From an uncultured Spirochaetota bacterium (GTDB taxonomy: Bacteria > Spirochaetota > Brevinematia > Brevinematales > JAOACQ01): a DNA stretch of 64,000 bases. A program made the position numbers and the translations under genes. The notes under the pieces were generated by a model. It had not been told where the DNA came from. It was given only the letters and a program-made list of their open reading frames with translations, and searched no databases. The first letter of the stretch is position 1. The number at the start of each line of letters is the position of its first letter. Shown piece by piece: positions 20,021 through 41,550 of the stretch. The DNA is taken from NCBI GenBank assembly GCA_963835575.1, contig CAWIGG010000002.1, positions 672,001 through 736,000 of the forward strand. The letters are read 5' to 3'.

Positions 20021-20613
20021 ATTTTATTCCAAAACCTTTAATTTAATTGTCTTGATTTTTGATCGTATAGTTGAAAGCTTAATTATTAGGACTTTTTTTC
20101 CGATAAAATAGCAATGAAAAATGAAATAATATTTTTCTTAAACCCCTTTACATTTAAAATAAATAGATATATAGTATTTATGGGTAAAAGGGGTTTTATT
20201 CGGCTTTTCAATAAATAAATCCTTTCCGGAGTCAATAACAAAATAATTGACACATCATTAGTTAATTAGAATTTTCTTTCTAAAAAGAATCAGTAATATC
20301 AAGATTTTTGTTGAAATCATATGTATGAAAATTTTACATTTTTTTTGTTTGAGGTGTATAATTTATAGAATGCGAGGAATGCCTCAATACAAAAACAAAT
20401 CAAAAAAGATGTGGATAGTGAGGGATGTTTGAAAAAAAATTAATTAAATATTTATTATTTAATGATTATATAATTTATTTATATATATAGGGAATCTCTA
20501 TCCTCTGGGGGGAGGGTTTGGAGCGTTTCTTTATGAAAATATTTTAGAAAAAGCCTTTAAGAAAATGTTTCTTGAATAATTAATAAGATGTGAATTTTGG
20601 GTGGGAGGAGTTT

Positions 20614-23600
20614 ATGGTGTTTCTGAGAGGGCTTATCTTATTTATTATTTCATGTCTTTTTATTTTTATAAAAGGCTGGTCTTATTATTATTCCCAGAAT
20701 TTTACAGCTACGCCTGCGGGAGCGGGATGGACAACCAATCTCAGATACGGCATTGATACCGGTATAACCAATGAAGCAACATCGGAAACGATTACTTACG
20801 GCGCTGCTGGAGCATCATTCGCCGGATTAATAACCACTGCTATGACAACTATAGATTTGTTAAAAGGCTGTATGCTCAGATATGATACGAGTTATAATGC
20901 CAGCCCAAATCAGCCTTTCGGATATGAAGTGACCAGGAGTTCGGTCCGTTTAGACAGTCATGATGATGCGACAAACCCGGAATCCGGAAGAATGTGGGCG
21001 GCTTTCAGTTTGTGGCTGGTGCAGTATAAAGCCGGAGTGGATAACGGTAACTGGACTGGAATTAAATATGATAATTTTCTTAATTTTATGGAATTTTACC
21101 GGCCGAAACTGGGCAGTGAAGCGGATACAAGGCCGCAAAGTTACTGGGGAAAAAATGATGATATTCTCAGCGGTTATGATCTGTCAGCAATTTCCAATGC
21201 GTCTGAAACCGGGGTCGTTAATTTAACGAACTATCTGCAGTGGTGTTATGATGATTACTGGGGCCGGAATACATATCATACCGGAGGGCATGATAATGCT
21301 TATTCCAATAATGTTAATGTCATCAAGATCCGTGTATCGACTGACGGGGCATATGCCTATCTCTACATCAATCCGAATCCCAATGGCTTAGGCAGTCTTA
21401 ATAACAGCGATGGTACGACAGGATCTTATCCGAACGAGTTTCTTCTTGTCGCAAAAGAAAGCATCAGCTATTCTAATAATTTAATTGCCATGTTCGGTGT
21501 TGAAGCCAATAGAAGCGATCAGCAATTTAACAACGCAGCTGTATCAAATTTTACAATCCGTTCTGTATGCTCTTCCGTAACCTCGGAGATCGCTCCATAT
21601 CAGGTCAAAGCTAATTCAACTACGAGGCTTTATACAGTTATAACACCTGTCTTTTCAAGCGCGAATGAAGCAGGAGTTGGGGAGTTTTATGTTGATATGC
21701 CGGCAGGCTATGCATGGACAAATGAATTTACAAACAGCATCAGCATACAGTGGATTGATACAAACGGTACGGCGGTAAAAACTTTTGGTAAATCATATGG
21801 CGGCGATGCGAATCCGGCAGCCGGTAATGTAAGAATTATTGTCAAAGATCTTTCATCCGGTGATAAAAGACGGCTCAAAGTACGTTTTAATTCATCCGAG
21901 GTGTTTCATCCGGATAACGGCTGCGGAACGGCAGCCACCAACGCGATCCTTTTAATTGTTTCAAATTTTACTTCCGCTGCGATTGCTGATTCGAGCGGCA
22001 AAAGTTTTACAATTTATGTGAATAATGAAAAATATAATGATACCGCATGGACTAAGGTTGCGACGACAGGTAAAATGCAATCCTATGCAGGCGACGCTTA
22101 TAATATGGTATTGTTAGGGCAGGCCGATAATAATACACTGGCATTCCGGACATATAATGATCCTTACGGCGTGGCCGGTCTTTCCGCGGGAATTACGCCG
22201 ACTTCTCCCTATCCCTTCATGTATGAAGGGGATATAAATCAAACACTTTCCTATACTATTTCGGCTAAGGATGCGACGAATAATAATGCCGATATCGGCC
22301 GTGTTGTAATAATAGTTCCTGATGGTTTTACAATAAATTCGAATACCATGGCAAGTCTGCGTATTGACCCGAGTAATATTTCTTTAAGCAACAATTCGGG
22401 GAAGCAATATATTGTTGTGGATTATTCCAAAGCGGGTACGGCTCTTGTGGCTGGGAGCGGGATTGATACCATCAGTTTTCAAAACAATACAACAACCAAT
22501 TTTTTAACAAATGAAGTGATGGTTTTCTGGAAATCTTTATCTTATTCAGCTTTGGCGGGGACTTCCTTTGTCACGAATTCAACCAATTCGGAAATTATTT
22601 ATCAACAGCTTTTAGTCAGAAAAAAGCCGCCGAACGGAGATGGTTATATTGCGGTAAGCCCCAATGTCATTCCAGCTTTAACAAAAAACACTGCCGTCAG
22701 TAATAATTACAGCTATGTTATTCAAAATTTAGGCGATAATGGGAATAATATCAGAAAAGCCCTGATAAATCTTGGAAATTATTTTACAAATGCGGTAAAT
22801 GTTACAAATTCAATTCCAGCGGTGAGTTCCATTTATAGTTCAAATTCATCGGTCTGGATAGAAGTGAATTATGCCGCTTCCGGAAAAGTATTGTCCAATA
22901 ATAATATCGATACTATCAGTTTTACAGCTTATGATAATGTGCAGCCTTTAACAAATGTTATTTTAGTTGGATCGAATACGTCTTATGCGGATAACGGGAA
23001 TGGGGACGGATGGGTTCCGCTTAACCGGGATTCACTGGGGTGGGAAGTTTCATTCTATACGCCTCCTGCAGAGCTCAGAGCGCGGATAATATTCCCTGAA
23101 GATGAATACGGCGGTCCCAATCCATTTAACAGGCATGAGGAATATACTGATATTGATTTCGGCACAAATATTCAAATTGAAGTAAAAAACTGGGGAGAAG
23201 CCGGGAATGACATCTCGCTTGTAAAGATCATCTGTCCTTTTGAGATCACAAATATTTTATCGCTTAATTCTTTAAACGGCGCTTTTTTATCTACAAATAA
23301 AGAAAACGGCTCGAATGTTATTATAGCTTCCTATGCCGGGATGGGTAATTTGAAAGCATCTCTTACCGATCCTTCATTCGGCAGTAATGATATCATTAAT
23401 TTGAATGTTCTGGATTCTATTACTCAGGCAATGGATGTGAGCTTTACGGTTCAAGGTAAAAATACAACAAATTATGCCGACAGTTCCCCTCTTGAGGGCG
23501 GAAATCTCATAATGAATTATATATATCCGCCTGTTATGGCAGACAGCTTTGTATCCGTGTCGAATGGTTTTATTGATGCGGCGACAAATACGGCGACAAT

Positions 23601-26600
23601 AACATATACTATAAATAACCTCGGGAGATATGGAAACAGGATCATTCAGGCATTTGTTTATTTTCCAACCAATTATATCACAAATATTCAATTTAACGGA
23701 AGCCTTCTCGGTGCGGCCGCGAATTATAGCAGCGGCGTTTTAACATTGTCATACGGGAACAAATTTCCAGGCGGAACAAATGATGTAATAAATGTAACTA
23801 TGTGGGACAATGTGGAAAGCGCGAAAACCACATTCGATCTCACCTGCGGTATTACCAATGACCGAGAGCTGTCAAATTCAATTGGAGTTACTTCTAATCA
23901 AACACAAACAGTATATATTACCCCGCCGCCCACTCTCTATTCCTACCGTCTCTTGCCAACAATATTTTATAATGCTAAAATCGGCGCTACTAATACAAAC
24001 CAGCTTGTGATAAGTGTTTCTAACAGAGGATGGGGAAGTAATAAGCTGAACAGGATTAAAATCGATATTCCTCAGGATTTTATAAATGAAGTCACTCTGG
24101 TCAGCAACGCTTTGACTGGACTTATAAATACTTCAAGCGGTCCTTTGCAGATATCCAATAATAATAATATATGGTTGATGTATGACCAGGCTGGTACAAA
24201 TTTGACGGCAGGCGGCAGAGATGACATCTATCTATGGATTGAAGTGAGTTCGACAAATGTCACCAATACAACCTGGACGGTATGGGCGGCTAATAATTCG
24301 ACAAATGATTACAGTCAGAGCCTGACAAATAACGGGTTTATGCTGGACGGCGGAATGAATATGCTGTCGCTTGTCGATAGGCCGCATGGTTATACGGCTA
24401 CCACGGAAGTTCTGACTCCTTCAGTCGTCAATGCTTATACAAACCGGATTAAAAACGGGGATACCATTAATTCAGGGCGTTCGATTTCAAGGGTCAGAAT
24501 AGGAATGCTTTCCATGTTTACTCTGGTCAGTAATATAATGAGCAGTTCTCTCGGAGCATGTACAACGAATGGTAATTATATTATAGTGAATTACGGCGTT
24601 CCGTTAAGTCCCGGATCGCTGGACACAATAGTATATTATGCTTATGATAACTGGACATTCGGTGAAACGAGAGAATCCTTTACATGGGATGTTGATTACG
24701 GCGACGGTTCCGGATGGCATCCGGCGGGCACAACACCCGGACAGACTAATGAAGTTTATTTCAGGAATCCAACAGTAAGCGCCCGTACCTATGTTACACC
24801 CAATCAGGTTTCGCAGGATTTCCCTACGAATAATTATTCATTTTATCTTGAAAATATAGGGGAAAGCGGAAATAATATTGCTGTTGCCAGAATTACAGCC
24901 CCGAATTTTATAACCAATATTTCAAACGCTGTTTCATTGATAAAATCCGGTATAATCACGATAACAAGCAATATTGTCACAATTTATTATACGAATAGTC
25001 TGCTTGCCAGCACAGAAACAGATCTTATCAGTTTAATCGGTTATGATAGTATCAGTAACTCGACAACAAATGATAACTGGCAGTTATATGTTTATAATAC
25101 GACGAATTTTACCGGCGGCGAGAATGCTATAATAGTTGTTGGAAAAAGTCTTGGATTGAATATTGTGGCACCGGATGTCAGGCCGAGGATTTATATCGAA
25201 GCGACAAATTCAGTCTCGGATCAGGAAAAGAATGTTATCTATTCGAGTTTGACTACAAATTATCTGAAATTTTATATTTACAACTTAAGTCCAACAGAAG
25301 ATAGTCTGGATGACAGCATTACAAAGCTGAAAATTACCCTGCCGATGGGCGGAATACTGGATACTAACACGCTGTCCGCGACAAATTTAATCATATCAAA
25401 CGCCGTTACAATTCTATCCAATGGGGCTCTCTGGGTTGATTATTCCTCCTCCAGAATACTTTCGGGACAGCATGATGAAATCCTTATCCGGGTAAATGAT
25501 ACAATTACTCATTCAGAAACGAATTTAACATGGAGCGCTGATGCCGCATTTGTTTCAACTTATAATAATTATAAAAACGCGGCTTTATACTCTTCTGATA
25601 AATCGCTAAGTATTACATACAGAATGCCGCAGCCTGCCGGTTATATTACAATGAATCCGTCTCAGCTTTATCAGAACCAGACTAATTTTGTGATGCATTT
25701 GTCTCTCAGTAATTCAGGCATGGGTACTGCCGATCTGGATTATCTCTGGGTTACTTTGCCTAATGAATTAAAGACCGGTTTTGACTTAACAAAAATATCC
25801 AATACAAAGGCCATAGCGACAAATTATAACAGCGGCACCGGGCAAATCGAGTTTTACTATTCATCGCCGTTATTGACAGGCCAGCAGGATGATATTTATT
25901 TGTCTCTGAATAATGCTTCTGCCGTTTCGACTAATTTATATATTGATTCAAAAGTCAGGGATTTTATATACACCAATACAACATCAATTGAAACAAATAA
26001 AAATCTATTCATTTCGACTTATCCGGCAGTGTCTGTTACACCGAATGTTATTGATACAACGACGTCAACCAATCTTTTGACAATAACTCTGGATAACATT
26101 ATAAACGGCACACTGAATGTGAAAAAAGCCATACTGGTACTTCCTGAAGAATTTACGAATATTATATCCATACAGAGCAGGATTATAACTAATGCGGCCC
26201 ATATTACGGGGACAGCGACAAACCTGGTATTAAATTATGATGATGAGGGAAAAGAAATCGAAGTCGGGGATTATGACGTCATCACTGTTAATTTAGCAGA
26301 TAATTTTAATGTCGGCACTATAACAAACGGGCTGCTGGCTTATGTCAGCGACGGGCAGGGATTCGGCTTTGTGCAGACAAAGGTCAGGGTCTCCGGTTCG
26401 ACTAATATCATATTTCAGATGCCTCAGCCTGTATCACAAAGCAGGCTGTACCCGGACACAATCAGTTTGACGACAACGACAAACAGCATGTCGATATGGA
26501 TAACAAATGAAGGAAGCGGAAGCAGCGCCATACGTTTTGCGAGAATATGGCTGCCGTCCGGGCTCAGCAATGTCTCGCCGGCTATCACAAGCAGCAATAT

Positions 26601-28314
26601 CGGCTTGACTGCATATATACCGGAAAGCAATCTGATTTTTGTTCAATATACTAATGAAAACCTTTTATCGAGCGGTAAAGAGGATTGCCTGAGCTTTATT
26701 TTTACGAATAGAATAAATTCTGTCAGCAATCTTTCGGTCCTGGTTAAGGTCGCGAATTTAACCAATAATCCGCAATACGTTAATTCCCCGGGCGTAATTG
26801 GGCCAAATTTGATGATACGTGTAGATTATCCGCCTGTTGCGGCTGAAGGATATTTTAATAATAGTAATACTTTATATATTATACAAACGAATTCAAGCCT
26901 GACTTACAGGATAATGAACAGGACCTTTGATACGGTGTTAACGCAGGCGGTTATTACTCTGGACACAAATTTATTTACAGGTATAAGCGTTGCAAGTTTA
27001 AAAGCCCTGAGCAGTTCTTTTAACAGCGCCAGCAATCAGATTACATTCAGCTACGATCCATTACAGACAAATTTCGGTTTCAGCGGTTATGATGATATTA
27101 CATTTAATTTTAAGTATTCACTCAGTAATTCATATTTGATACCGGTTCATACAAGGGTTTGGCTGACAGGAAATACAATAACTAATATAGATACGCTTGC
27201 ATCGGCGGGTAATGTTTCATATATTCTGATAACAAATTCTTCATGGGGCGCAGTGAGGGGAACTATATTCCCTTCAATAAAACCAGTTAATGTAAAGCTT
27301 TATTACCCCGGCACAAGTACCGCGGCGACGAATGTAGACGGCGCTGTTATAACGGCCGTATCATCAGGCACGGGAATATATGATATTGATAAAGTTCCCG
27401 CCGGAACTTACAATTTTGAATATACAGCAGCAACTTATAGAACTTATAGAATAAACAATTTTAAGGTAAATGCCAACACACTGAATATAATATCAATAAT
27501 CACAATGGATAATGCGCCTCTGATCGCAGGGCTGACAAATTCCAACCAGGAAGTCGATTGCTATGATGATAATAGAAGCAAGGTGATCTTTTTAACAAAC
27601 GGCATTGAGAAGCAGTTTGCAGTCAATATAAAAAGAATGCCCTTTACTGAGATACAGAAAGAGAAGGTCAATTCTGAAAATCTTATTAAAGAACCGTCAA
27701 CAAAAGATTATTTGAGCAATTATATGTTCGACTTGAGTGATATTAATGATAATCAATTGAAGGGGGCCATTATCACCAATGACGCTATCATGTACCTGGC
27801 TTATGATGTCACTAATATTACATCAAGAGGGTGGAATGAAAATGATCTAGCCATTTATTACTGGGATGAAACAAAACTCAATTCGCGATGGATCAGGTTG
27901 GGCGGAGAAGTTGATAAAGTCAATCAATTTGTAATAGCCAAAGTTAATTACATACATCAATTCTATGCTGTTATGGCTAAAAGCGGAGATGGAAAAAGCA
28001 ACGGCGCCATTAGAAACGTGAGCGTCAGGCCCAAGATATTCACGCCGACCAAGGACCAGAACGGCTATTTTGGAAGCGTCCGTATCAGCTTTGAACTGGA
28101 TCCTGCTCAAAAATATGATAGTTATGAGGTTAAAATATATGATCTACGGGGTGATCTGGTCAAGAGTTTTAAGAGAAGCGGCTCCTACACTCAGGGCGAG
28201 GTCGCATGGGATTCCCGTGACGATGGCGGCTATCCGGTTAAAGGCGGAGTGTATATTTACCGTGTGAAAGCCGGGACGAGTGTTTTTGCCGGCACTATAA
28301 TCATTGTGCGGTGA
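20614..28314 (+). CDS. Giant exported repeat protein A (~2,566 aa): N-terminal head, 13 beta-sandwich-like repeats, carboxypeptidase-regulatory-like domain, FlgD-Ig/T9SS-CTD-like tail
   Basis: Start re-picked at the ATG after GGAGGAG; signal peptide; repeat motif x-I-x-N-x-G...I-xx-A-x-I-xx-P...G-xx-D-x-I; C-terminus PKIFTP...VKIYDLRGDLVKSF...WD...GVYIY...GTIIIVR. Confidence 0.8.
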   Translation: MVFLRGLILFIISCLFIFIKGWSYYYSQNFTATPAGAGWTTNLRYGIDTGITNEATSETITYGAAGASFAGLITTAMTTIDLLKGCMLRYDTSYNASPNQPFGYEVTRSSVRLDSHDDATNPESGRMWAAFSLWLVQYKAGVDNGNWTGIKYDNFLNFMEFYRPKLGSEADTRPQSYWGKNDDILSGYDLSAISNASETGVVNLTNYLQWCYDDYWGRNTYHTGGHDNAYSNNVNVIKIRVSTDGAYAYLYINPNPNGLGSLNNSDGTTGSYPNEFLLVAKESISYSNNLIAMFGVEANRSDQQFNNAAVSNFTIRSVCSSVTSEIAPYQVKANSTTRLYTVITPVFSSANEAGVGEFYVDMPAGYAWTNEFTNSISIQWIDTNGTAVKTFGKSYGGDANPAAGNVRIIVKDLSSGDKRRLKVRFNSSEVFHPDNGCGTAATNAILLIVSNFTSAAIADSSGKSFTIYVNNEKYNDTAWTKVATTGKMQSYAGDAYNMVLLGQADNNTLAFRTYNDPYGVAGLSAGITPTSPYPFMYEGDINQTLSYTISAKDATNNNADIGRVVIIVPDGFTINSNTMASLRIDPSNISLSNNSGKQYIVVDYSKAGTALVAGSGIDTISFQNNTTTNFLTNEVMVFWKSLSYSALAGTSFVTNSTNSEIIYQQLLVRKKPPNGDGYIAVSPNVIPALTKNTAVSNNYSYVIQNLGDNGNNIRKALINLGNYFTNAVNVTNSIPAVSSIYSSNSSVWIEVNYAASGKVLSNNNIDTISFTAYDNVQPLTNVILVGSNTSYADNGNGDGWVPLNRDSLGWEVSFYTPPAELRARIIFPEDEYGGPNPFNRHEEYTDIDFGTNIQIEVKNWGEAGNDISLVKIICPFEITNILSLNSLNGAFLSTNKENGSNVIIASYAGMGNLKASLTDPSFGSNDIINLNVLDSITQAMDVSFTVQGKNTTNYADSSPLEGGNLIMNYIYPPVMADSFVSVSNGFIDAATNTATITYTINNLGRYGNRIIQAFVYFPTNYITNIQFNGSLLGAAANYSSGVLTLSYGNKFPGGTNDVINVTMWDNVESAKTTFDLTCGITNDRELSNSIGVTSNQTQTVYITPPPTLYSYRLLPTIFYNAKIGATNTNQLVISVSNRGWGSNKLNRIKIDIPQDFINEVTLVSNALTGLINTSSGPLQISNNNNIWLMYDQAGTNLTAGGRDDIYLWIEVSSTNVTNTTWTVWAANNSTNDYSQSLTNNGFMLDGGMNMLSLVDRPHGYTATTEVLTPSVVNAYTNRIKNGDTINSGRSISRVRIGMLSMFTLVSNIMSSSLGACTTNGNYIIVNYGVPLSPGSLDTIVYYAYDNWTFGETRESFTWDVDYGDGSGWHPAGTTPGQTNEVYFRNPTVSARTYVTPNQVSQDFPTNNYSFYLENIGESGNNIAVARITAPNFITNISNAVSLIKSGIITITSNIVTIYYTNSLLASTETDLISLIGYDSISNSTTNDNWQLYVYNTTNFTGGENAIIVVGKSLGLNIVAPDVRPRIYIEATNSVSDQEKNVIYSSLTTNYLKFYIYNLSPTEDSLDDSITKLKITLPMGGILDTNTLSATNLIISNAVTILSNGALWVDYSSSRILSGQHDEILIRVNDTITHSETNLTWSADAAFVSTYNNYKNAALYSSDKSLSITYRMPQPAGYITMNPSQLYQNQTNFVMHLSLSNSGMGTADLDYLWVTLPNELKTGFDLTKISNTKAIATNYNSGTGQIEFYYSSPLLTGQQDDIYLSLNNASAVSTNLYIDSKVRDFIYTNTTSIETNKNLFISTYPAVSVTPNVIDTTTSTNLLTITLDNIINGTLNVKKAILVLPEEFTNIISIQSRIITNAAHITGTATNLVLNYDDEGKEIEVGDYDVITVNLADNFNVGTITNGLLAYVSDGQGFGFVQTKVRVSGSTNIIFQMPQPVSQSRLYPDTISLTTTTNSMSIWITNEGSGSSAIRFARIWLPSGLSNVSPAITSSNIGLTAYIPESNLIFVQYTNENLLSSGKEDCLSFIFTNRINSVSNLSVLVKVANLTNNPQYVNSPGVIGPNLMIRVDYPPVAAEGYFNNSNTLYIIQTNSSLTYRIMNRTFDTVLTQAVITLDTNLFTGISVASLKALSSSFNSASNQITFSYDPLQTNFGFSGYDDITFNFKYSLSNSYLIPVHTRVWLTGNTITNIDTLASAGNVSYILITNSSWGAVRGTIFPSIKPVNVKLYYPGTSTAATNVDGAVITAVSSGTGIYDIDKVPAGTYNFEYTAATYRTYRINNFKVNANTLNIISIITMDNAPLIAGLTNSNQEVDCYDDNRSKVIFLTNGIEKQFAVNIKRMPFTEIQKEKVNSENLIKEPSTKDYLSNYMFDLSDINDNQLKGAIITNDAIMYLAYDVTNITSRGWNENDLAIYYWDETKLNSRWIRLGGEVDKVNQFVIAKVNYIHQFYAVMAKSGDGKSNGAIRNVSVRPKIFTPTKDQNGYFGSVRISFELDPAQKYDSYEVKIYDLRGDLVKSFKRSGSYTQGEVAWDSRDDGGYPVKGGVYIYRVKAGTSVFAGTIIIVR

Positions 28315-28324
28315 GGGGGCGGAT

Positions 28325-31300
28325 ATGAATAAAATATTATATTTATCTATAAACTATCTTTTACAGGCAGGGAAAAAAATGCATCTATTTTACCGCTTTA
28401 TACTGGTATTTCTTGCTTTGATTATCTGCAGTTCAGGCTTTTCCCTCTCTTATTATTATTATGAAGATTTTGAAGCAATGCCTACGGCCGCTAATGGGGC
28501 AAGTTATTCTAATAATGGTATTTATTCGACCAACGGATGGAGCTGGAACTATAGATTAGGAAGAGATGTTATAGCTTATGATGTCTGGCATAGCAGTACA
28601 GCAGTAACACCAACTCCTTGGTATGGAGGAGTGGAAATTACAAACAATGGAGGAAATAAACGTCTCTTTATATACGGAAGGCCGAATAATGAAGACCTCT
28701 TCTGGAACAACTGGTGCATCGGGGACGGGATCAAATTCGATCCGAAAAGTAACCAGCAATTAGGTAATAGTTCGATAATAGCCACGCCTGAAAATCCTTT
28801 CGGCTATACGATAGTCAGATATACAACCAGCATTGATGCTTCCTGCGAGTCTCAGGCGCAGGCGGATTATCATAAAGGATTCGTAGGTGCATGGCTCGGC
28901 GAAGATATGCCGGGAAAAACCAATCAGAATGATTCTTTGAATAATTTCATTATATTTGAAGATAAAAGCGGGGACAAAGTACAGAACAGTTACGGATATT
29001 ATTACAATGCGGATTACAGTGTAGATATTACAACATTAACTTCCGATTTTGATGGAAAATCGGTTGGTAATACAGCTCTATTGGGTACTGATTTTAGAAA
29101 AATAATGGATGATAATAACGCAGGATTTAATAATTCAATAAAATACAGCACGGCATATTCAAATCCAGTAACCCGCCCGTTGGGTATCAAAATGACTACA
29201 GACGGTTCAAAAGTGAGAATTTATGTCAATTTCAATCCGACCAATGAAACGGCTTACGGATTGTCCAACAGCTGGGTCCTGATAGTTGAAAAAGACGCGG
29301 CTATTGCACAGGACCTGATTGCGTACTTCGGGGATGAAACAACATATTATCTGCCTGAAGGCATAGAAGCCCAGTACGATAATTTCCTTATAAGGACTGT
29401 TACCAGTAATATTCAAGCTTCCATTTCTCCCCAGAAAGTTGTGACCAATGGTTTTGTCCGCTTTAATATGATCATAACTAATTTTATGGGTACAACCAAT
29501 GACAGCGGTATAGGGGAATTTGTGGTTAAAAAACCTGCCAGTTATACATCAAACTGGATTTTATCCAATGTGAGCATCTCCAATGAATATGGAATGCTGA
29601 CGGTCACAAATACAAATATGAATCCGCCTTCAGGCTACGCATCAGTATCAACAAACTCAAGCGGTGATCTCTATATACGGTTTAACATGTCATCAGGTTC
29701 ATCGCATCAAATACTCACAAACAGCGTAGGGGTAGTTAATCTTCAATTCAGCATCTGGACTTCTCCAAATGCAAACAGCTCTGGCGAGAATTTTGAGGTG
29801 TATGCCGACTGCGTCAAGCATGCCGATACCGGCCCGGATTGGGTTTTTAATCAATCTACCGGTATTAAATACGCTACGACAGGAAAAAAGAAGGCATATC
29901 CTGTTTCATCGGATTCCCTATCGGTGCAAGTCTATACATCACCGGCTGCTTATGCGATGCTGTCTTCGCCGAACAGCCTGGTTGTCGGTCAGGACCAATC
30001 CGCCCTCAGTTTTATTTTATCCACTGAAGGGATATCAGGGGCGCCTAACATATCCTATGCAAGGATTTATATACCGGCCGGATTTACTGTCAGTAATAAC
30101 AATCCGTCGACCAACATCAGTTCAATGGTACTGGGAAGCCAGAGTTTTCAAAATTGCTATCTGACTAATATCAATGGAAGCAATTTTATTTTTATCAATT
30201 ATATGGGCGTGGGAGGCTTCCCGGGAATAAACGGCTGGGACACGATATCTTTCAATAATTACGGAACGCCTGCAATGCCCGGCGGAATCAATTATACGAA
30301 TTTCCTCTGGCAGGTTTCTGTCGACAGTTCGGGAATTATCGGAGGTACAGTCTGGCAGAACACAATAACAAACAGTACTTACAGCCATCAGACATTAAGA
30401 ATGACTATGTCCAATGCTCAGGTTTCAGCTTATATTACGCCTCAGAAAGCCGCTATAAATACCACGGTTCAAAGCAATCAGCTTCGCTACAGCTATTTTA
30501 TTGAAAACACAGGTCAGATAAATAATAATGTTTATGGAATAAGGATTGATATACCCGGGGATTTTTTAACCAACAGTGTAACGAATATCGTGAGTACAAA
30601 CGGCGGTATAACGAAATTATCAAATAGCTCGATCTGGGTAAATTACGCTTCTCCGCTGACGAGCGGTCAGAAGGATACCATCCTGTTTTACGCGACCCAC
30701 ACAAATACGGATGTCAATGCATCCAGTAAATCAGTCCCATTTTATTGTTATGCCGATAACAATAACAGCATAGGATATACAATTCAAAGGGAAGCGGCAG
30801 GACAGACCTGGAGTGTAACAATTGTACCTCCTTTACCGGCGGCGGAAAACCAGCTTTTTATTCCTGTCACGAATATTATCGGGACCAATACCAATGTTAC
30901 AATGAATCCTGTTATTTATACTTCTGATGTGACTAATACATTTATACATAAGATATATAATACCGGTGCTATCGGTGTGAATATTAAACTGGCTGTAATA
31001 TCAGTGGCAACAAACTATATTTCATCAATTTTCAATGTTTCAAGCTCACTGGCTGGCAGCCATTATCAAATCAGCAATATTAACGGAAGCAATTATATTT
31101 ATTTAAAGTATTATGAAAATAACACGAATTTGTTATCAATGGATCAGGACCCGGCGGCGCTTGACACAGTCCAATTTACCGCTGTGGACAGTATAGCGGT
31201 CAATACATTCAGCATTATGCCCACAAATATTGGCATGCCGGTCACCGTTTATAAAACGACTAATGTTTCCATGGATCCGAATGATTACAGCACCTCTGCG

Positions 31301-34300
31301 ATCGGCATCAAATATTCTGGAACCAATAAAATTTATGTCGAATATCCTCATGTCGCATTGGCGTATTATATAGTTCCGAACAAACTGGATACGACAACAA
31401 TCACAAATTCAATTACCTATTTTATCACAAATCTGGGAATGCCGGGTAACAGTGTACATAATATAAAAATCAGTATTCCCACTAATATTTCCACCAATAT
31501 TCAGAATGTTAACGGGGGAGTATTTGACCCGGTTACAAATAACATAGTAATCAATTTTCCGACGCCTTTAGATGGAGGGCAGTCAAGAACAGTTACTTTC
31601 AATATGATTGATATTGTTGACGGAAAAGATATAAAAGATATTTATTTATATCCCTGGGTTTCGAATGACAGGGAGAGCGTACAGGTCTCAAATGTGGTTT
31701 TAGGCATGAGCGGAAAGCTGGATTTTTTGCTTCCTAAACCGAAAGGCGGCGGCGGCGTCAGCCCGAATGTGTTCTTTGTCGATCTGAATGAACCATTAAA
31801 CAGCGTTTTGACGCAGCAGTTCACAATAACGGTGACAAATGCGGGTGTGGGAACAGACCGCTTTAATAGCTTAAAAGTTGATATACCGGATGCATTGAAT
31901 GGATTAATAAATACGGTTTATTCCACAAAGTTAGGAGTTTCCAACCAGGGTAACCCGTTATTGATAAAATTAAATGCGACCAATTTTGAAATAATATATT
32001 CTAACGCTTCGTCATTTATCCCGGCAAAAAATGCTGATACTATAATTGTTACCGCGCTTGTTTCCAATCTTAATTCTCTTCCGACAAATGGTGTATGGGA
32101 TTTTTATGCGGACAACGGCTCTGTTTTAAATAATTTTCCCAACCCGGATATTACTTATTTTGAACTGACTGATGTCACTATCGGAAGTTCCGGATTATAC
32201 GGCACTGAAAGGCCTACAGTCAGCCAGAATGGGGACACATTGACAACAGTCATCACAAACACATTTGATTATGTCATTCAAAACGGGAGTACTTTTAATG
32301 GAGAACCGGTCAGTAAAGCCAGAATAGAAATACCCTGGCCGTATACTGCGGTGATCCAGACTATGAATATCGGAGGACAGAGCGCCAACCTCTCGACAAA
32401 TGGCGGTTATATATGGCTGAATTACGTTGGGCCGAATTATCTCTCAAGCGGTAATAATACAGCAATTGAAATTAAAACGGTCAAACCTCTTATTTCAGAA
32501 GCCACGAATGTTTTATGGAATTGCGATGTCTATTATTTGGATAATTCCAGCAATACGGCTGTCAGTAATGTGAGGGGCGATCCAAGACAGATGATTGTAT
32601 TGCCTAACGCATATTTTTACAGCTATGTCTCGCCTAATGATGTGGGAAAAGATGAAATAGGAGTTTTATATACCTTTACTATTACAAATTACGGGGAGAT
32701 CGGAAATAACCTGTATAAGATAAAAATAGTGCCGCCGACAACAAATTCAAATAATTTTTTAGTAATGACCAATATTGATAGTATTACATCAGTATTAGCG
32801 GGGACAAATACCATATATTCCAATGACGGCTGCGTTTATATCGATTATGGAGCGAATAATACGAATATTGTTTCTAAAGCCATCGATACTGTCAGTTTAA
32901 GAGCTTATGACAATCAGGATTCAATCGGTTTTAAGGGCCAATGGGCAGTCTATACGGCTAATGGAAAAACAATGAATCCAACAATTGCGACGGCTGATCC
33001 GGAAACCGGCATTGGAAAAAGCCTCTCTTATAATGTGATTATGCCTGATTATGATTCGACATATTATGTCATTCCCAATAGTGTTTCGACAGTTAGTACA
33101 TCAAATACTATCAAAGTCGTCATTGAAAATGCGGGTAAAGGAACAAACAATATTAACAATGTGAGAATCTATTTACAATATCCTTTCCTGACGAATAATA
33201 TCGCCGTATCAAGTTCAAACGGCGCCGCTTACAGCATGTCTTCCGAGGGAGGGACAAATTATGTTGATCTGCAGTATCCTCCGAATACTTTTGTTACAAA
33301 TAAAGCGGATATTATTACACTCAATATCCAGGATGAAATGAATTACGGCGACACCAATATACTTGTTGATGTAAAAACCCGTTATAATACTTCAGTATTA
33401 ACATATATTCCTTCAAGGATACAATCAGGATTTACGAACCTGATCAGTTTTTTAATGCCTCCGCCTGTTGTCAGCGCAAACTTTGTGTCCGATAGTGTTT
33501 ATACAGTTCAAAGAGATTCAAAGCTGAGGTTCAGGATTATCAATAACGGCCTGGGAAGTAATGAATTAAGGAATATCAGTTTAACTGTTAATAGTTCATT
33601 TACAAACGGTTTAACTATTGCCAGGATTTCTGATAATCTGGCCACAAATATCATTTATGACAGCGCATCCGGTACATATGAAATGAACTACAGCAATTTT
33701 GTTATATTAATGACAAATGATATTGTGCTTGAGGTGACAAATACTAATACGCAGAAAATAAAGAATTTTAATTTTGATATGAGTTTCAATAATGGAATAC
33801 GCAATACAAATTTGTCGCTTTATTTGAATGTTGATACTCCCCCTACCGCATCTCTCTTAACAAAAGAAGTTTATGCGCCAAACTACAGCAATGATGTAAA
33901 GATGAATTTCTTTAATTACAGCAGCGGAAGTTCTTCTATATATTATCTCAGAATAACTCCGCCCAATGTCTTTACAAATCTGCTGAACCCGACAAGCGCA
34001 AAAGGAACAGTTGTGAGTAATCTGGGAACAAATATTGTGATTTACTATGCCTCCGGTCTTGCTAAAACGGATAACGATACAATTGAAATGTGGGCGGTAG
34101 ACAGCAACGATATGGTAGAAACCAGCAATGTTCCCTGGAAGCTGGAAGCTGATAATACCGGAGGCTATTCGGCTGTGGCTGAAGATCAGAGTAATTCTCT
34201 GGAAATGTCTCTTATTATACCTCAACCCAGTGTATCGAATATTGTTTATACTAAATGGTATGTGATCAATACCGGAAGTACAGAGTTAACAAATAGTTTT

Positions 34301-36106
34301 ATTCTGATGTTCAGCAATATCGGCGAGGGGGCTAATTCAATATTTTCTAATATTGTGGTGCTTCCCAGCCAGCTATCCACTGTTTTAGCATCAACGTTGA
34401 CTAATACAAAAACAGGTTCCAGGATTAATTTCAGCGGGAATAGTATAATTGTTGAGTATACAAATAGTTCGGGTTTATTCCCGGGAGAATGTGATACAAT
34501 TACGTTTATGTTTACTAATACAGTTACTTCTTCTAAAGATCTCTATCTATCCACGCAGAGTTACAACGGCAGTTCCAAAGGGGACACAGAAGAGACATTT
34601 ATTGTCAGTTTTATTTCGCCGCAGGAACCGACGGAAGGATATGTTGACGGACAAATGTCGATTTACAGCATAGATAATAACGCCGTTATTAAATATCATA
34701 TCAACAACGGCATGTATGACCACGGCATCAGGGCAGTGAGACTTTCATTTGATAACACACAACTTTTTGTGACAAATATTTACTCAACGGTTTTAAATCA
34801 AAACTTAAGCTATAACCTGACACCGTCAAATATTATTATCCATTATAATACCCTGCTTCCTCCCAAACCTACAACCGGTTCATCCGGCAGTAATGAAATC
34901 CTTCTGATTGCGGTTAATTATACAAATAATCACAATTGGACAAATTATATGAATGCCGACGTTTTATATGACGGGGCTTATGATTACGCGCCGGCGCAGG
35001 TAAAGCCCGGTGAAAATAATTTCCTTCCTGTAATGATAGCGGACTTCGGCAGGGTGACCGGTATTGTTCTTCCCGGGAATTCCAATCCGACCATAAAACT
35101 GTATAATCACAACAGCGCCGTAACCGCGACGAATAAATTAGGGAATCAGATTACAGCAGGCGGCAATTCTACTACCGGCCAGTATACGCTTGATAATATA
35201 CCGGCAGGCACCTATGACATAGGTTTTATAGGGAATCTGTATAAAGAAGATAAAATATCCGGTGTGCAGGTCCTAAATAATGTTATTACCAATATAAGCT
35301 TATTCAAGCTCAGAAGAGACATATTTAACCGTGATTCTACAACTGTTCAGACAACAGTTTCATTGGATGATACAAATTGTATTGTTACAATTCCAGCGGG
35401 GACATTGGGCGATAATTTTTCAATTGATATCTGGATTACAAATGTCAGTGTTGTGAGTGGAATGAGGGAAAAGCTCACAAGCGGCGGCTCAATCAAGTCT
35501 CCTTCCTATCCTGATAATGTTAAAGTATACAATCTTGATATCAGGGGAGTTGACGAGGACAAGAGATATGAACAGGAATTGAAAAACGATGTCATTATTT
35601 CCCTGCATTATAATGACATCGATATAAGCTCACAAGGCTGGAAAGAAGGTACATTGGCTATTTATTACTGGAGGAGTATGACCAAAGAATGGATCAGGAT
35701 CGGAGGCGCAGTGGATACCACCAGAAACATGGTAACGATCAAAGCAAGCTATCTGCATCAGTATTACGCGATAGTTGATGAGAATCCGGGAAGCACGAAA
35801 GTTAAAGGTATTGTCAGCGTAAAGACCGATCCGAAAATATTTACTCCGGGCGTGAATAACAGAACATTTAAAAATATTAAAATATCCATCGGCTTTGAAG
35901 ACGCTCATGATACTTACCAGGTTAAAATTTATGATCTGAGGGGAAATCTTATCAGATCGTTTGTCCGGAGCGGTGAATACAAGCAGGGAGAAATTTACTG
36001 GGACGGCACAGATGAAGATGGATATAATCTGAAGACTGGGGTATATATTTATAAAATTATCGCGGGAACAATTGTTTACAGCGGTACTATAGTGATTGTC
36101 AGGTAA
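28325..36106 (+). CDS. Giant exported repeat protein B, a colinear paralog of A (alternative start 28379)
   Basis: Signal peptide then SYYYY; 13 repeats; C-terminus PKIFTP...VKIYDLRGNLIRSF...WDG...GVYIY...GTIVIVR. Confidence 0.8.
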   Translation: MNKILYLSINYLLQAGKKMHLFYRFILVFLALIICSSGFSLSYYYYEDFEAMPTAANGASYSNNGIYSTNGWSWNYRLGRDVIAYDVWHSSTAVTPTPWYGGVEITNNGGNKRLFIYGRPNNEDLFWNNWCIGDGIKFDPKSNQQLGNSSIIATPENPFGYTIVRYTTSIDASCESQAQADYHKGFVGAWLGEDMPGKTNQNDSLNNFIIFEDKSGDKVQNSYGYYYNADYSVDITTLTSDFDGKSVGNTALLGTDFRKIMDDNNAGFNNSIKYSTAYSNPVTRPLGIKMTTDGSKVRIYVNFNPTNETAYGLSNSWVLIVEKDAAIAQDLIAYFGDETTYYLPEGIEAQYDNFLIRTVTSNIQASISPQKVVTNGFVRFNMIITNFMGTTNDSGIGEFVVKKPASYTSNWILSNVSISNEYGMLTVTNTNMNPPSGYASVSTNSSGDLYIRFNMSSGSSHQILTNSVGVVNLQFSIWTSPNANSSGENFEVYADCVKHADTGPDWVFNQSTGIKYATTGKKKAYPVSSDSLSVQVYTSPAAYAMLSSPNSLVVGQDQSALSFILSTEGISGAPNISYARIYIPAGFTVSNNNPSTNISSMVLGSQSFQNCYLTNINGSNFIFINYMGVGGFPGINGWDTISFNNYGTPAMPGGINYTNFLWQVSVDSSGIIGGTVWQNTITNSTYSHQTLRMTMSNAQVSAYITPQKAAINTTVQSNQLRYSYFIENTGQINNNVYGIRIDIPGDFLTNSVTNIVSTNGGITKLSNSSIWVNYASPLTSGQKDTILFYATHTNTDVNASSKSVPFYCYADNNNSIGYTIQREAAGQTWSVTIVPPLPAAENQLFIPVTNIIGTNTNVTMNPVIYTSDVTNTFIHKIYNTGAIGVNIKLAVISVATNYISSIFNVSSSLAGSHYQISNINGSNYIYLKYYENNTNLLSMDQDPAALDTVQFTAVDSIAVNTFSIMPTNIGMPVTVYKTTNVSMDPNDYSTSAIGIKYSGTNKIYVEYPHVALAYYIVPNKLDTTTITNSITYFITNLGMPGNSVHNIKISIPTNISTNIQNVNGGVFDPVTNNIVINFPTPLDGGQSRTVTFNMIDIVDGKDIKDIYLYPWVSNDRESVQVSNVVLGMSGKLDFLLPKPKGGGGVSPNVFFVDLNEPLNSVLTQQFTITVTNAGVGTDRFNSLKVDIPDALNGLINTVYSTKLGVSNQGNPLLIKLNATNFEIIYSNASSFIPAKNADTIIVTALVSNLNSLPTNGVWDFYADNGSVLNNFPNPDITYFELTDVTIGSSGLYGTERPTVSQNGDTLTTVITNTFDYVIQNGSTFNGEPVSKARIEIPWPYTAVIQTMNIGGQSANLSTNGGYIWLNYVGPNYLSSGNNTAIEIKTVKPLISEATNVLWNCDVYYLDNSSNTAVSNVRGDPRQMIVLPNAYFYSYVSPNDVGKDEIGVLYTFTITNYGEIGNNLYKIKIVPPTTNSNNFLVMTNIDSITSVLAGTNTIYSNDGCVYIDYGANNTNIVSKAIDTVSLRAYDNQDSIGFKGQWAVYTANGKTMNPTIATADPETGIGKSLSYNVIMPDYDSTYYVIPNSVSTVSTSNTIKVVIENAGKGTNNINNVRIYLQYPFLTNNIAVSSSNGAAYSMSSEGGTNYVDLQYPPNTFVTNKADIITLNIQDEMNYGDTNILVDVKTRYNTSVLTYIPSRIQSGFTNLISFLMPPPVVSANFVSDSVYTVQRDSKLRFRIINNGLGSNELRNISLTVNSSFTNGLTIARISDNLATNIIYDSASGTYEMNYSNFVILMTNDIVLEVTNTNTQKIKNFNFDMSFNNGIRNTNLSLYLNVDTPPTASLLTKEVYAPNYSNDVKMNFFNYSSGSSSIYYLRITPPNVFTNLLNPTSAKGTVVSNLGTNIVIYYASGLAKTDNDTIEMWAVDSNDMVETSNVPWKLEADNTGGYSAVAEDQSNSLEMSLIIPQPSVSNIVYTKWYVINTGSTELTNSFILMFSNIGEGANSIFSNIVVLPSQLSTVLASTLTNTKTGSRINFSGNSIIVEYTNSSGLFPGECDTITFMFTNTVTSSKDLYLSTQSYNGSSKGDTEETFIVSFISPQEPTEGYVDGQMSIYSIDNNAVIKYHINNGMYDHGIRAVRLSFDNTQLFVTNIYSTVLNQNLSYNLTPSNIIIHYNTLLPPKPTTGSSGSNEILLIAVNYTNNHNWTNYMNADVLYDGAYDYAPAQVKPGENNFLPVMIADFGRVTGIVLPGNSNPTIKLYNHNSAVTATNKLGNQITAGGNSTTGQYTLDNIPAGTYDIGFIGNLYKEDKISGVQVLNNVITNISLFKLRRDIFNRDSTTVQTTVSLDDTNCIVTIPAGTLGDNFSIDIWITNVSVVSGMREKLTSGGSIKSPSYPDNVKVYNLDIRGVDEDKRYEQELKNDVIISLHYNDIDISSQGWKEGTLAIYYWRSMTKEWIRIGGAVDTTRNMVTIKASYLHQYYAIVDENPGSTKVKGIVSVKTDPKIFTPGVNNRTFKNIKISIGFEDAHDTYQVKIYDLRGNLIRSFVRSGEYKQGEIYWDGTDEDGYNLKTGVYIYKIIAGTIVYSGTIVIVR

Positions 36107-36120
36107 AGGAGGAACGGGGT

Positions 36121-37383
36121 ATGTTAAAAAGATATTTAATTATTATTTTATTTATTCTATCTATATCATCAGCTTACTGTGCTTATGAAGACGGGGAAAG
36201 AAATGCGCGGAGCCGGGCAATGGGCGACGCTATTTTTGCCGATTTTGACGGTGTGAACACCATGAATTATAATCCGGCTACCATAGCGCTTGTTCGAAGC
36301 ATACAAACTTACGGGGCCTGGGATACGCCCTATACAGGCTTGAATGACGATACAGGTATCAATACAATTCACTTTGATCTTGTCGTTCCATTCTGGAATA
36401 GTTTTACAATCGGCCCCGATCCCTTCCTGACAAAAAGGGCGGCTTTAGGAATCAGCGTAAAGAGACTTTCAGTAAGCGGCATAGATTCTGACGGCGCTAA
36501 TGTGGAGTTTTATCATGAGGCGGAATACAGTTTAATTTATGCTAAAGATTTGAACGATGCCCTATCAAAAGGAGCGAAAATATCTGTCGGAGTAAAATTT
36601 AATTTGTTTGATATCGGCATTGGAAATACAGTGGATGTTCAAAATAACGAGAATATTGTTCAGCTCTCCAGGCTTTCATTCGGTATGGACGCGGGTTTGA
36701 CTTATGATTTCAGCGAGACTATTCATATCGGCCTGGCTTATAATAATTTAGTGCAGCCTAATATTTCAATAATGCCCGATGGGACAGATGTCCTTCCCAG
36801 CGAATTAAGATTAGGGGCCAACTGGGATATCGGAGATTTTTTATTTTTCAAAAAGGCCAAATTGGGTTTCGGTATAATCAGTTACGGAAGAGATCCGAAT
36901 GATAACCGTCAGGCAGATATGTCCTGGAACCTTGGCTATGAATTCAGGCAGCTGACAGCCAGCGAGATAATTAAAGGGAGTACATTTAAAGGTGAAATGC
37001 TGGCTTTCCGCTTTGGTATGATTTATCTGCAGAAAAAGACAGGAGATGACATTGATTTGTATATAGTTAAACTTACAGGAGATCTTGTTATGACAGGCGG
37101 TCTTGGTTTTACTTATGAATTTAATGAGGCGCATCAGGTAAGTGTTGATTATTGTATTGATTATGGTTTGAACAATGGAGCATTGAGACAAACCGTTGGT
37201 TTGAGTTACCGTTATTTATTCCCGAACAGCGCTTTTGCTTATAAAGAAGAAGAAAGAAAAGAGTTGGAGTTTGAAGAGTTGATGCAAAAGCGCCAGACTG
37301 CTGTCACCAATCAATCTCAAAATAATCAATATAATCTGCCTGTAACTCAGGAGACAAATAAAACAAAAACAAAAGTCAAATAG
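36121..37383 (+). CDS. PorV/PorP-SprF-like (FadL-related) outer-membrane beta-barrel
   Basis: Signal peptide; ARSRAMGDA...NYNPA plug motif; GMDAGL, NLVQP, LPSELRLG amphipathic strands; AGGAGG RBS 14 bp after the previous stop. Confidence 0.7.
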   Translation: MLKRYLIIILFILSISSAYCAYEDGERNARSRAMGDAIFADFDGVNTMNYNPATIALVRSIQTYGAWDTPYTGLNDDTGINTIHFDLVVPFWNSFTIGPDPFLTKRAALGISVKRLSVSGIDSDGANVEFYHEAEYSLIYAKDLNDALSKGAKISVGVKFNLFDIGIGNTVDVQNNENIVQLSRLSFGMDAGLTYDFSETIHIGLAYNNLVQPNISIMPDGTDVLPSELRLGANWDIGDFLFFKKAKLGFGIISYGRDPNDNRQADMSWNLGYEFRQLTASEIIKGSTFKGEMLAFRFGMIYLQKKTGDDIDLYIVKLTGDLVMTGGLGFTYEFNEAHQVSVDYCIDYGLNNGALRQTVGLSYRYLFPNSAFAYKEEERKELEFEELMQKRQTAVTNQSQNNQYNLPVTQETNKTKTKVK

Positions 37384-40154: not shown

Positions 40155-41550
40155 GAGTTATAATAGAAAGTTGTGTATAGGAATAAATATTATAAAAAAG
40201 ATGGCGTACCCTCTATAATTTATTTACGACAATAAACAAAAGGAGGAATACGCCATATGCCGAAGCACAACGAAGATTTTAAGCTCTTAGAGGCTTTTAA
40301 TCAAGATGAAACAGTAGAATTTTTATGTCTTGAAGAATTGGCAAGGATCGGGGCCAGGGAAATAATCAAGAAGGCTCTGGAAGATGAAATTAATGGGTTT
40401 CTTCAGGAGAGAGAGCATTTAACTATCGAAGACGGGAGAAAGGCAATAGTAAGAAATGGGTATCATAAAGCCCGTCAGATTCTCATTGGTGGAGGGGCTA
40501 TTGATGTATGTATTCCGAGAACAAGGAACCGACTCGGAGGCGACAATTTTCAAAGCCTAATAGTACCGCCGTATATGAGAAAAAGCCTGAGAATTGAGGA
40601 AGCCATTCCATTGTTGTATCTCTATGGAGTCTCAGAGATGGATATGGAGAATGCCTTGAGAGGATTGCTTGGTGAAGAAGCGAAAGGATTATCAGCCTCA
40701 AGTATAAGCAGAATGAAACAAGGATGGGGTAAAGAATATGATGAGTGGCGGACATCCGATTTAAGCGATAAAAAGTATTGCTATATATGGGTTGACGGCA
40801 TTTACTTCAATGTACAGGGCAGCGAAGACCGTTTATGCACTCTTGTAATGATCGGAGCCAATGAGAATGGTGAAAAGGAGATTATTCTTGTTGAAGAAGG
40901 TTACAGAGAGAATTCCGAGACTTGGTTAGGGATATTAAGAAACCTAAAAGAAAAAGGTTTGAAAGGTCCTATTCTTTTTATCGGAGACGGAAGCCTTGGA
41001 TTCTGGAAAGCAGCCAAAGAAGTATATCCTGAATCCAGATGGCAGAGATGCTGGGTTCATAAGATAAAGAACATTCTAAACAAGCTGCCCAAAGTATTAC
41101 AGTCAAAGGCAAAAGAGATGCTTCATGAGATATGCAATGCTCCTGATAAGGATAATGCTATCAAAGCTTTTGAATTATTCCAGGCGGTTTTTAATCCTAA
41201 ATATCCAGCAGCTGTCGAATGTTTAGAAAAGGATTGGGAGCTTATGATCGAATTTTATAACTGTCCGGCGGAACATTGGGTACATATCCGTACGACAAAC
41301 GTAATAGAATCTACCTTCTCTACAGTTCGATTAAGAACTAAAAAGATGAGAGGCTGCGGAACCAGGGAAACGATTCTAATAATGGTCTATAAATTACTGG
41401 ATAAGGCATCCAGGCGATGGAGAAAATTAAGAGGTTATGAAAAGATTAGCCTTGTATTGGAAGGCGCTGTTTTTGAGAACGGAGAGCTTGTAAAAAAGGC
41501 AGCATAAAAAAATGAGAGGGTATGTCATACACAACATTTGACAAAAACTC
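40155..41550 (+). mobile_element. IS256-family insertion sequence, copy 1 (1,396 bp)
   Basis: Imperfect IRs GAGTTATAATAGAAAGTTGTGTAT / ATACACAACATTTGACAAAAACTC; flanking direct repeat TTAATAA at 40148-54 and 41551-57. Confidence 0.93.
40257..41507 (+). CDS. IS256-family (Mutator-like) DDE transposase
   Basis: RNGY, YIWVDG, FIGDG, QRCWVH, RTTNVIES motifs. Confidence 0.95.
   Translation: MPKHNEDFKLLEAFNQDETVEFLCLEELARIGAREIIKKALEDEINGFLQEREHLTIEDGRKAIVRNGYHKARQILIGGGAIDVCIPRTRNRLGGDNFQSLIVPPYMRKSLRIEEAIPLLYLYGVSEMDMENALRGLLGEEAKGLSASSISRMKQGWGKEYDEWRTSDLSDKKYCYIWVDGIYFNVQGSEDRLCTLVMIGANENGEKEIILVEEGYRENSETWLGILRNLKEKGLKGPILFIGDGSLGFWKAAKEVYPESRWQRCWVHKIKNILNKLPKVLQSKAKEMLHEICNAPDKDNAIKAFELFQAVFNPKYPAAVECLEKDWELMIEFYNCPAEHWVHIRTTNVIESTFSTVRLRTKKMRGCGTRETILIMVYKLLDKASRRWRKLRGYEKISLVLEGAVFENGELVKKAA

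Follow-up and report, generated by a model that had tools for sequence, protein, structure and literature searches.

Asparagine-linked glycosylation by enzymes of the STT3, PglB and AglB type takes place at the canonical sequon N-X-S/T, in which X is not Pro. In Bacteroidota, a general O-glycosylation system uses the motif D-(S/T)-(A/L/V/I/M/T) and a mannose core; according to a 2025 review, its initiating enzyme is undiscovered and the system is the only known motif-directed O-glycosylation of bacteria (PMC12871550). TMEM260 (GT117) is described as a Thr/Ser protein O-mannosyltransferase (PMC10214176), and the human enzyme acts on chains in an extended state, with Thr as its main target and Ser as an alternative (PMC10214176; bioRxiv 10.64898/2026.03.17.711096; bioRxiv 10.64898/2026.09.21.753134; PDB 9RQL, 9RQM, 9RQN). 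Here we describe an excess of the dipeptide Thr-Asn (TN) in exported proteins encoded by a 64,000-nucleotide stretch of DNA, referred to as the window, and by the rest of the genome from which it comes, that of an uncultured bacterium of the class Brevinematia, phylum Spirochaetota, together with a candidate enzyme that may read this dipeptide.

The TN signal resembles the Bacteroidota system in being a short motif enriched in non-cytoplasmic proteins throughout a lineage, with interchangeable Ser and Thr and one strict neighbour. It differs in that the strict neighbour is an Asn following the hydroxyl residue and that Thr is strongly preferred, while the Bacteroidota motif itself occurs in exported proteins at chance (640 against 641.8 expected, 1.00). 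With STT3-type N-glycosylation it shares the strict Asn, the preference for Thr over Ser, the avoidance of Pro after Asn and the restriction to exported proteins, but the order of the residues is reversed, there is no spacer, N-X-S/T stands at chance and STT3 was found in none of the 41 Brevinematia genomes surveyed. The signal works like the general O-glycosylation of Bacteroidota without sharing its motif, and does not belong to the STT3 type. By sequence and catalytic residues the candidate enzyme is a homologue of TMEM260, but a split one: the GT-C module, the donor-loading loop and the luminal catalytic segment align with the human protein and are followed by probable TPR repeats, whereas what is one polypeptide in human is divided between two genes in almost every Brevinematia genome examined. 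A literature search, conducted largely without subscription papers, returned no description of a Thr-Asn motif or of a substrate for a bacterial TMEM260.

An export-biased Thr-Asn signal

The window corresponds to C2:672001-736000 of genome G000 (4.39 Mb, 94% complete), in which a purpose-written caller of open reading frames (ORFs), not Prodigal, gave 3,565 genes and a hydrophobicity heuristic, not SignalP, assigned 609 proteins to the exported class, 2,164 to the cytoplasmic class and 786 to the membrane class. The PurB encoded here shares 71-79% identity with records named Brevinematales, in keeping with a spirochaete related to that group. The exported proteins contain 1,715 TN at an observed-to-expected ratio (O/E) of 1.74 (bootstrap 1.62-1.86), the cytoplasmic ones 1,326 TN at 0.91 (bootstrap 0.86-0.97), and TN is the strongest exported-versus-cytoplasmic contrast among the 400 dipeptides (z 17.7). 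TD, one base away from TN, is the most depleted dipeptide, with 0.77 in exported and 1.06 in cytoplasmic proteins. The excess is found in every bin of combined Asn and Thr content of exported proteins, persists with local expectations over 30 residues (1.59-1.73) and still amounts to 1.51 after removal of the 30 TN-richest proteins. Adjacency of the two residues is required, T..N gaps of 2-7 giving 0.91-1.06. The second contrast is SS (z 9.1; 1.34 exported, 1.03 cytoplasmic), which arises from Ser-rich linkers.

Lipoproteins (O/E 1.87), other signal-peptide proteins (1.57) and the large window proteins A and B described below are all TN-rich, and the signal is therefore not bound to one secretion route. 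Since the excess is seen with each of the four Thr codons (2.5-3.1x), it is not a DNA motif, and a DNA-level or codon-pair cause is ruled out. The related motifs N-X-S/T, D/E-X-N-X-S/T, S/T-X-N and D-S/T-hydrophobic were each rejected as being at chance; in exported proteins N-X-S/T reaches 1.02 once the sites preceded by Thr are removed, and D/E-X-N-X-S/T reaches 0.95. A scan of the whole collection for three consecutive TN codon pairs returned mostly off-frame repeats and was uninformative on lineages.

The window proteins examined for the signal are listed here by position and strand:
20590..28314, + strand, protein A, exported, 2,574 aa, ending in a FlgD-Ig-like domain and probably starting at ATG 20614
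28304..36106, + strand, protein B, exported paralogue of A, 2,600 aa, with a C-terminal FlgD-Ig-like domain
36121..37383, + strand, exported TraF/PorV-like outer-membrane barrel, 420 aa; Pfam marks of its homologues are PF13729 and, in one, PF11751
685..1659, + strand, exported protein of 324 aa with no Pfam family
49015..51258, - strand, lytic transglycosylase Slt (PF01464) of 747 aa, with no relationship to A and B

A preliminary description of the window, made from its sequence, had counted by hand about 70 TN against about 20 NT in protein A and had judged protein B similar. The exact counts bear this out, with 71 TN (26.8 expected from 300 shuffles per sequence, z 9.6) and 18 NT in A, and 69 TN (27.7 expected, z 9.0) and 29 NT in B; the two proteins are 27% identical over their full length, and the sites in A are scattered across residues 49-2408. 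The bias proposed for other exported proteins recurs in the product of 685-1659 (6 TN against 1.3 expected) and in Slt (7 against 2.8). For the barrel, the description had pointed to the tail; both TN do lie in its variable C-terminal tail, but the whole protein is at chance with 2 against 1.8. The near absence of TN from MutS, ClpA and PurB was likewise correct, with none in any of them, but merely 1.2-2.2 were expected per protein. SN, also proposed, rises mildly in A and B (39 against 28, z 2.1-2.4) but not genome-wide (0.82 exported, 0.81 cytoplasmic), and the suggested enrichment of N-X-S/T proved to be at chance level in both A (60 against 52.3) and B (53 against 53.8). The argument that the order of the two residues goes beyond composition holds: the TN excess survives shuffling and the cytoplasmic proteins lack it.

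The conserved C-terminal modules of A and B are nearly free of TN, with 1 in the last 175 aa of A and 0 in the last 200 aa of B, where just 0.4 and 0.8 were expected. Judging by the FlgD-Ig C-terminal domains and the TraF/PorV-like barrel, the A-B-barrel unit (20590-37383) looks like a secretion module. Homologues of protein B were found with the protein B query in 20/41 genomes of the class, in 0/4 further genomes of the genus studied and in 0/12 genomes of the group labelled f6. Further along the window, two near-identical Mutator-family transposase genes stand in inverted orientation (40257-41507, + strand; 44104-45354, - strand) with a TPR gene between them (42697-43836), the arrangement expected of a composite transposon.

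The motif itself could be resolved further. Pro is avoided after TN (TN-Pro 0.74x, TN-non-Pro 1.78x; Poisson p 2e-7), whereas N-P is favoured elsewhere (1.19-1.37x); at the +3 position Lys, Glu and Asp are rare and Ile is common. Conservation was followed in 28 sequences of the A/B family (five families; 26 from relatives and 2 from the same genome), in all of which TN is raised 1.7-4.4x. Between families, T and N are retained together in 41% of comparisons, against 16% from single-residue rates; the pair-retention ratio is alike for SN and TN (2.68 and 2.61), against 1.17 for NT and 0.81 for NS, and several rarer dipeptides are higher. Where N is kept and T is lost, S is the replacement in 51% (background 16-19%), and where T is kept and N is lost, no replacement is favoured (D 12% against 13%). 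The avoidance of Pro, the joint retention and the exchange of T for S together define the unit as [T>S]-N-(not P), and we conclude that this is a real, class-wide and export-biased signal.

In the modelled part of protein B (residues about 701-1170, predicted local distance difference test score 86.8), which consists of tandem immunoglobulin (Ig)-like beta-sandwiches and matches Ig-like arrays by fold, 40% of TN sites are in strands and 42% in loops, close to the protein's own proportions (320 sites over 71 columns). The sites are not bound to one structural position, contrary to what an origin in buried repeat positions, considered in the preliminary description, would give. At the level of alignment columns, hydrophobic substitutes are rarer at the Thr of TN than at other Thr (0.295 against 0.392, p 0.006), and charged or Gln substitutes are rarer at the Asn of TN than at other Asn (0.16 against 0.31); a higher hydrophobicity of these Asn columns counted by site (0.31 against 0.19) vanished at column level (0.21 against 0.21). 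The Thr of TN therefore looks exposed and the Asn constrained, and the pattern, an indirect proxy for exposure, leans to Thr as the bearer of something bulky.

A split TMEM260/GT117-like candidate enzyme

The candidate is encoded in the same genome by genes for two parts:
C4:284163-285950, membrane (GT-C, PF11028) part
C4:64780-66534, membrane (GT-C, PF11028) part, second gene
C4:72124-73947, periplasmic second part, 607 aa, matching the C-terminal half of fused homologues

The membrane part matches PF11028 with E 1.4e-37 and the human structure 9rql_A with E 4.6e-36. It is devoid of the luminal half, which forms the separate second gene; by sequence, this second part matches residues 395-465 of TMEM260 (E 6e-6) and TPR proteins, and its nearest Atlas match is to TMEM260_2 clusters (31% of members). 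The fused homologues that it matches have 1,223-1,341 aa; fused forms occur in Brachyspira-named loci and in one Brevinema-named locus. Thermospira aquatica has both the barrel and the second part. PF11028 is present in 40/41 genomes of the class, including those of 1.4 Mb, the sole miss being a genome that is 57% complete, and the second part is present in 39/41. Across the phylum PF11028 was found in 106/301 genomes, and among 14 control genomes in Bacteroides thetaiotaomicron only.

The roles of the active-site residues, with D441 as the catalytic base, are taken from a cryo-EM study of human TMEM260 (bioRxiv 10.64898/2026.03.17.711096). Of the donor-binding residues, the equivalents of D52 and H67 are invariant (19/19), as are those of R264 and Y267 (14/14). 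D441, which belongs to the luminal Rossmann-like domain in human, aligns with the Asp of the second part's TEGGDNQVF motif, present in 119/120 homologues, the remaining one being gapped; by alignment, five of the six active-site residues checked are intact. At the position of human F349, which contacts the +1 residue of the substrate in the human structure (bioRxiv 10.64898/2026.03.17.711096), the 12 Brevinematia sequences have Thr, Ser or Asn, as would befit a polar residue at +1, but the alignment at this point is weak (E 3e-5).

A third copy of the membrane part, 97% identical to C4:64780-66534, lies where C4:1-1645 and the end of C5 (loci L064 and L065) overlap by 1,645 identical bases; its frame stops after 478 aa within the sequence read. 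Owing to this overlap, two of the four PF11028 matches of the genome represent one locus. The genes beside this copy look like what we take to be Tn7-type transposition genes. In its own genus, the second part is found near a Wzy_C ligase, a GT2 gene and one copy of the membrane part, and in f3 and f6 genomes it is located directly upstream of ftsW/rodA (L337, L347, L349).

Weighing the readings

Taking the signal and the candidate together, we propose that TN is a periplasmic O-glycosylation sequon on Thr, directed by Asn at +1 and read by the two-part TMEM260/GT117-like enzyme; we hold this tentatively, at somewhat less than an even chance. That the TN excess reflects glycosylation of some kind seems to us fairly probable. 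By analogy with human TMEM260, the unfolded chain leaving the translocon would be held by the periplasmic Rossmann-like/TPR part, while the membrane part would bind a polyprenyl-phosphate sugar donor. The two parts would pair, and Thr-Asn-(not Pro), with Asn at +1 as the recognition residue, would be positioned at the catalytic Asp, that of TEGGDNQVF, which would deprotonate the Thr hydroxyl. The sugar would then be transferred from the polyprenyl-phosphate donor onto Thr and perhaps be lengthened by a ligase, as is proposed for Bacteroidota (PMC12871550).

The comparison across lineages, in which 18-140 kb of DNA was sampled per genome, follows the enzyme in part. In seven Brevinematia genomes outside f6, TN is the top contrast, with 131 observed against 89 expected in exported proteins (1.48) and 0.82 in the cytoplasm, whereas nine spirochaete genomes in which PF11028 matches were absent or weak give 109/129 (0.85) and 0.92. 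Brevinema-named loci reach 1.41 and Brachyspira-named loci 1.37, with the same neighbourhoods repeated. In the phylum to which a Limisphaerales record belongs, PF11028 occurs in 72/201 genomes; the loops of the Verrucomicrobiota-type enzymes themselves contain 24 TN against 12.9 expected, and 80 metagenome loci retrieved with these enzymes encode 59 exported proteins with TN 85/54 and NT 40/54, on contigs without taxonomy. The enzyme is thus present wherever the TN excess is seen, and not every carrier is TN-enriched.

Several observations weigh against the proposal. Eleven enzyme-bearing spirochaete genomes outside the class give TN 173/153 (1.13) beside NT 1.20; TN tops their contrast (z 4.0) as the cytoplasm is low (0.75), and the O/E falls to 1.08 after removal of genome G046 and one 1,434-aa protein of G251. 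In f6, where both enzyme parts are present in 12/12 genomes, TN stands at 29/34 (0.87) without one 716-aa G029 protein with 44 TN, and at 1.73 with it. Randomly sampled DNA of f5 (18/17) and f3 (14/12) gives flat values, while the protein B orthologues there reach 1.7-2.4x. The Verrucomicrobiota comparison consists of enzyme-bearing loci only and has no enzyme-negative control, and related genomes are not independent, so that kinship inflates the pattern of motif and enzyme. Within the genome itself, the cleanest control, made inside single proteins, failed: the periplasmic domains of 12 HAMP sensors contain 7 TN against 7.6 expected, with 17 against 12.1 in their cytoplasmic parts, where the rate of exported proteins would give 13 in the periplasmic domains (p 0.05); a motif-defined set of six sensors, three of them common to the HAMP set, has 3 against 4.8; the loops of polytopic proteins differ little between the outside (1.16) and the inside (1.03); and many large exported proteins are without any TN. 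As for the enzymes, the human one acts on a long motif of IPT domains that has no Asn, and the equivalent of R355 is replaced in Brevinematia, mostly by Val. According to the human study, R355 contacts mannose, and R355A retains about 20% activity (bioRxiv 10.64898/2026.03.17.711096); given its loss, the donor sugar may differ from mannose.

The 716-aa protein of f6 (L191:3-2150) is exported and cut by the end of its locus, and most of its TN lie, in varied contexts, in a low-complexity, mucin-like tail. In the enzyme-bearing spirochaete samples of f20 and f24, outside the class, cytoplasmic TN is 0.64-0.75, below that of the enzyme-negative samples (0.92). Large exported proteins free of TN, with 3-4 expected, include C2:84191-87181, C6:358950-362534 and C2:209035-210312; recent acquisition is one possible explanation, and selection for gaining sites may act only on proteins of the surface and of envelope structure. 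A crude set of sensors with two transmembrane segments was discarded as a side test, as it did not separate the two sides (1.76 against 1.65).

The enzyme might be another one. A Thr O-glycosylation sequon read by a different GT-C protein, whether Wzy_C ligase-like, a YfhO-like protein of 863 aa or PMT/ArnT-like, is unlikely in our view. The distribution of these families tells against the TMEM260-like enzyme to some degree, with Wzy_C in 41/41 genomes of the class and YfhO-like proteins in 28/41 by weak matches that may have missed others; one Wzy_C gene even sits between the two TMEM260-like parts in the genome studied, which also has 14 PMT_2 matches. The Wzy_C protein, however, has 422 aa with an O-antigen ligase domain only and belongs to a family common in the controls (9/14); YfhO-like proteins occur in just 1/6 genomes of the TN-rich f7; and PMT and PMT_2 are patchy, PMT_2 being found in 0/4 f5 genomes and PMT in 0/4 f5 and 0/2 f3 genomes, though f5 and f3 are TN-rich. 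The PMT_2 clade of C2:80395-81924, common to f1, f4 and f7, was rejected as the reader on the same ground, f5 being TN-rich with PMT_2 absent from 4/4 genomes. The 14 PMT_2 matches suggest a second, motif-free route of glycosylation. A search for TMTC/DUF1736 gave no match and is uninformative, as the control genomes gave none either. Motif matches alone also point to a manC-like gene and to four DPM/GtrB-like GT2 genes in the genome.

The preliminary description had placed the modification on Asn and suggested a search for STT3/PglB-like oligosaccharyltransferases. A non-canonical N-linkage of this kind, with Asn as the acceptor, Thr or Ser at -1 and a non-STT3 enzyme, possibly TMEM260-like with altered chemistry, appears to us just as improbable as a different GT-C reader. 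A strict Asn, an exchangeable T>S and the avoidance of Pro right after Asn follow the same logic as N-X-S/T, but STT3 (PF02516) matched 0/41 genomes of the class, including the one studied, and among the controls four archaea only, and GT41 (PF13844) gave 0 matches in the genome studied against 2/14 controls, the HMW1C N-terminal family not being part of that search. The Thr columns look exposed while the Asn columns shun charged residues, and the class-wide candidate has as its only characterised relative a Thr/Ser O-mannosyltransferase (PMC10214176). What stands of the earlier proposal is the lineage-wide, export-restricted and order-specific [T/S]-N signal; the N-X-S/T component and the link to STT3/PglB find no support, and for the residue modified the evidence modestly favours Thr over Asn.

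A reader that attaches no sugar, be it a chaperone, a component of secretion or a phospho- or acyl-transferase, would suit the sequence statistics equally well, as would any factor that recognizes a short linear motif, and the lack of excess in inner-membrane sensor domains could mean that it acts later than the translocon. The spread of the excess over lipoproteins, other signal-peptide proteins and A/B, and the absence of a candidate gene in a search confined to glycosyltransferases, speak against such a reader, which we rate slightly lower than the two alternatives above. Lowest of all we place the explanation that no reader exists and that beta-rich exported proteins with much Asn and Thr favour TN for reasons of structure or composition, through turn capping or the Ig V-T-N-x-G strand end. 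The O/E does climb with N+T content, from 1.26 to 1.91, with 1.65 in the top cytoplasmic bin, and some TN sites lie at Ig strand ends. However, TN-x-G accounts for just 3/71 sites in A and 7/69 in B, the excess persists against local expectations, the nine spirochaete genomes at 0.85 include equally AT-rich ones, and the top outliers of the cytoplasmic class include visibly mis-sorted exported proteins.

Implications for bacterial O-glycosylation

Returning to TN as a Thr sequon read by the split enzyme, a wider proposal is that bacterial TMEM260/GT117 proteins are the missing initiators of sequon-directed O-glycosylation and that each lineage has its own code, Brevinematia, like part of the Verrucomicrobiota, using T-N-(not P) and Bacteroidota D-S/T; we consider this possible but less likely than not. 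Because the proposed sequon is visible from sequence alone across a class and the catalytic residues of the two-gene candidate can be mutated, both the second sequon and its initiating enzyme are directly testable. If the proposal is true, the two-residue tag would be a compact handle for glyco-engineering, Thr-Asn would add a second sequon to bacterial O-glycosylation, recognized by an enzyme that is naturally divided into two subunits, and the bacterial relatives of TMEM260 would gain a substrate rule.

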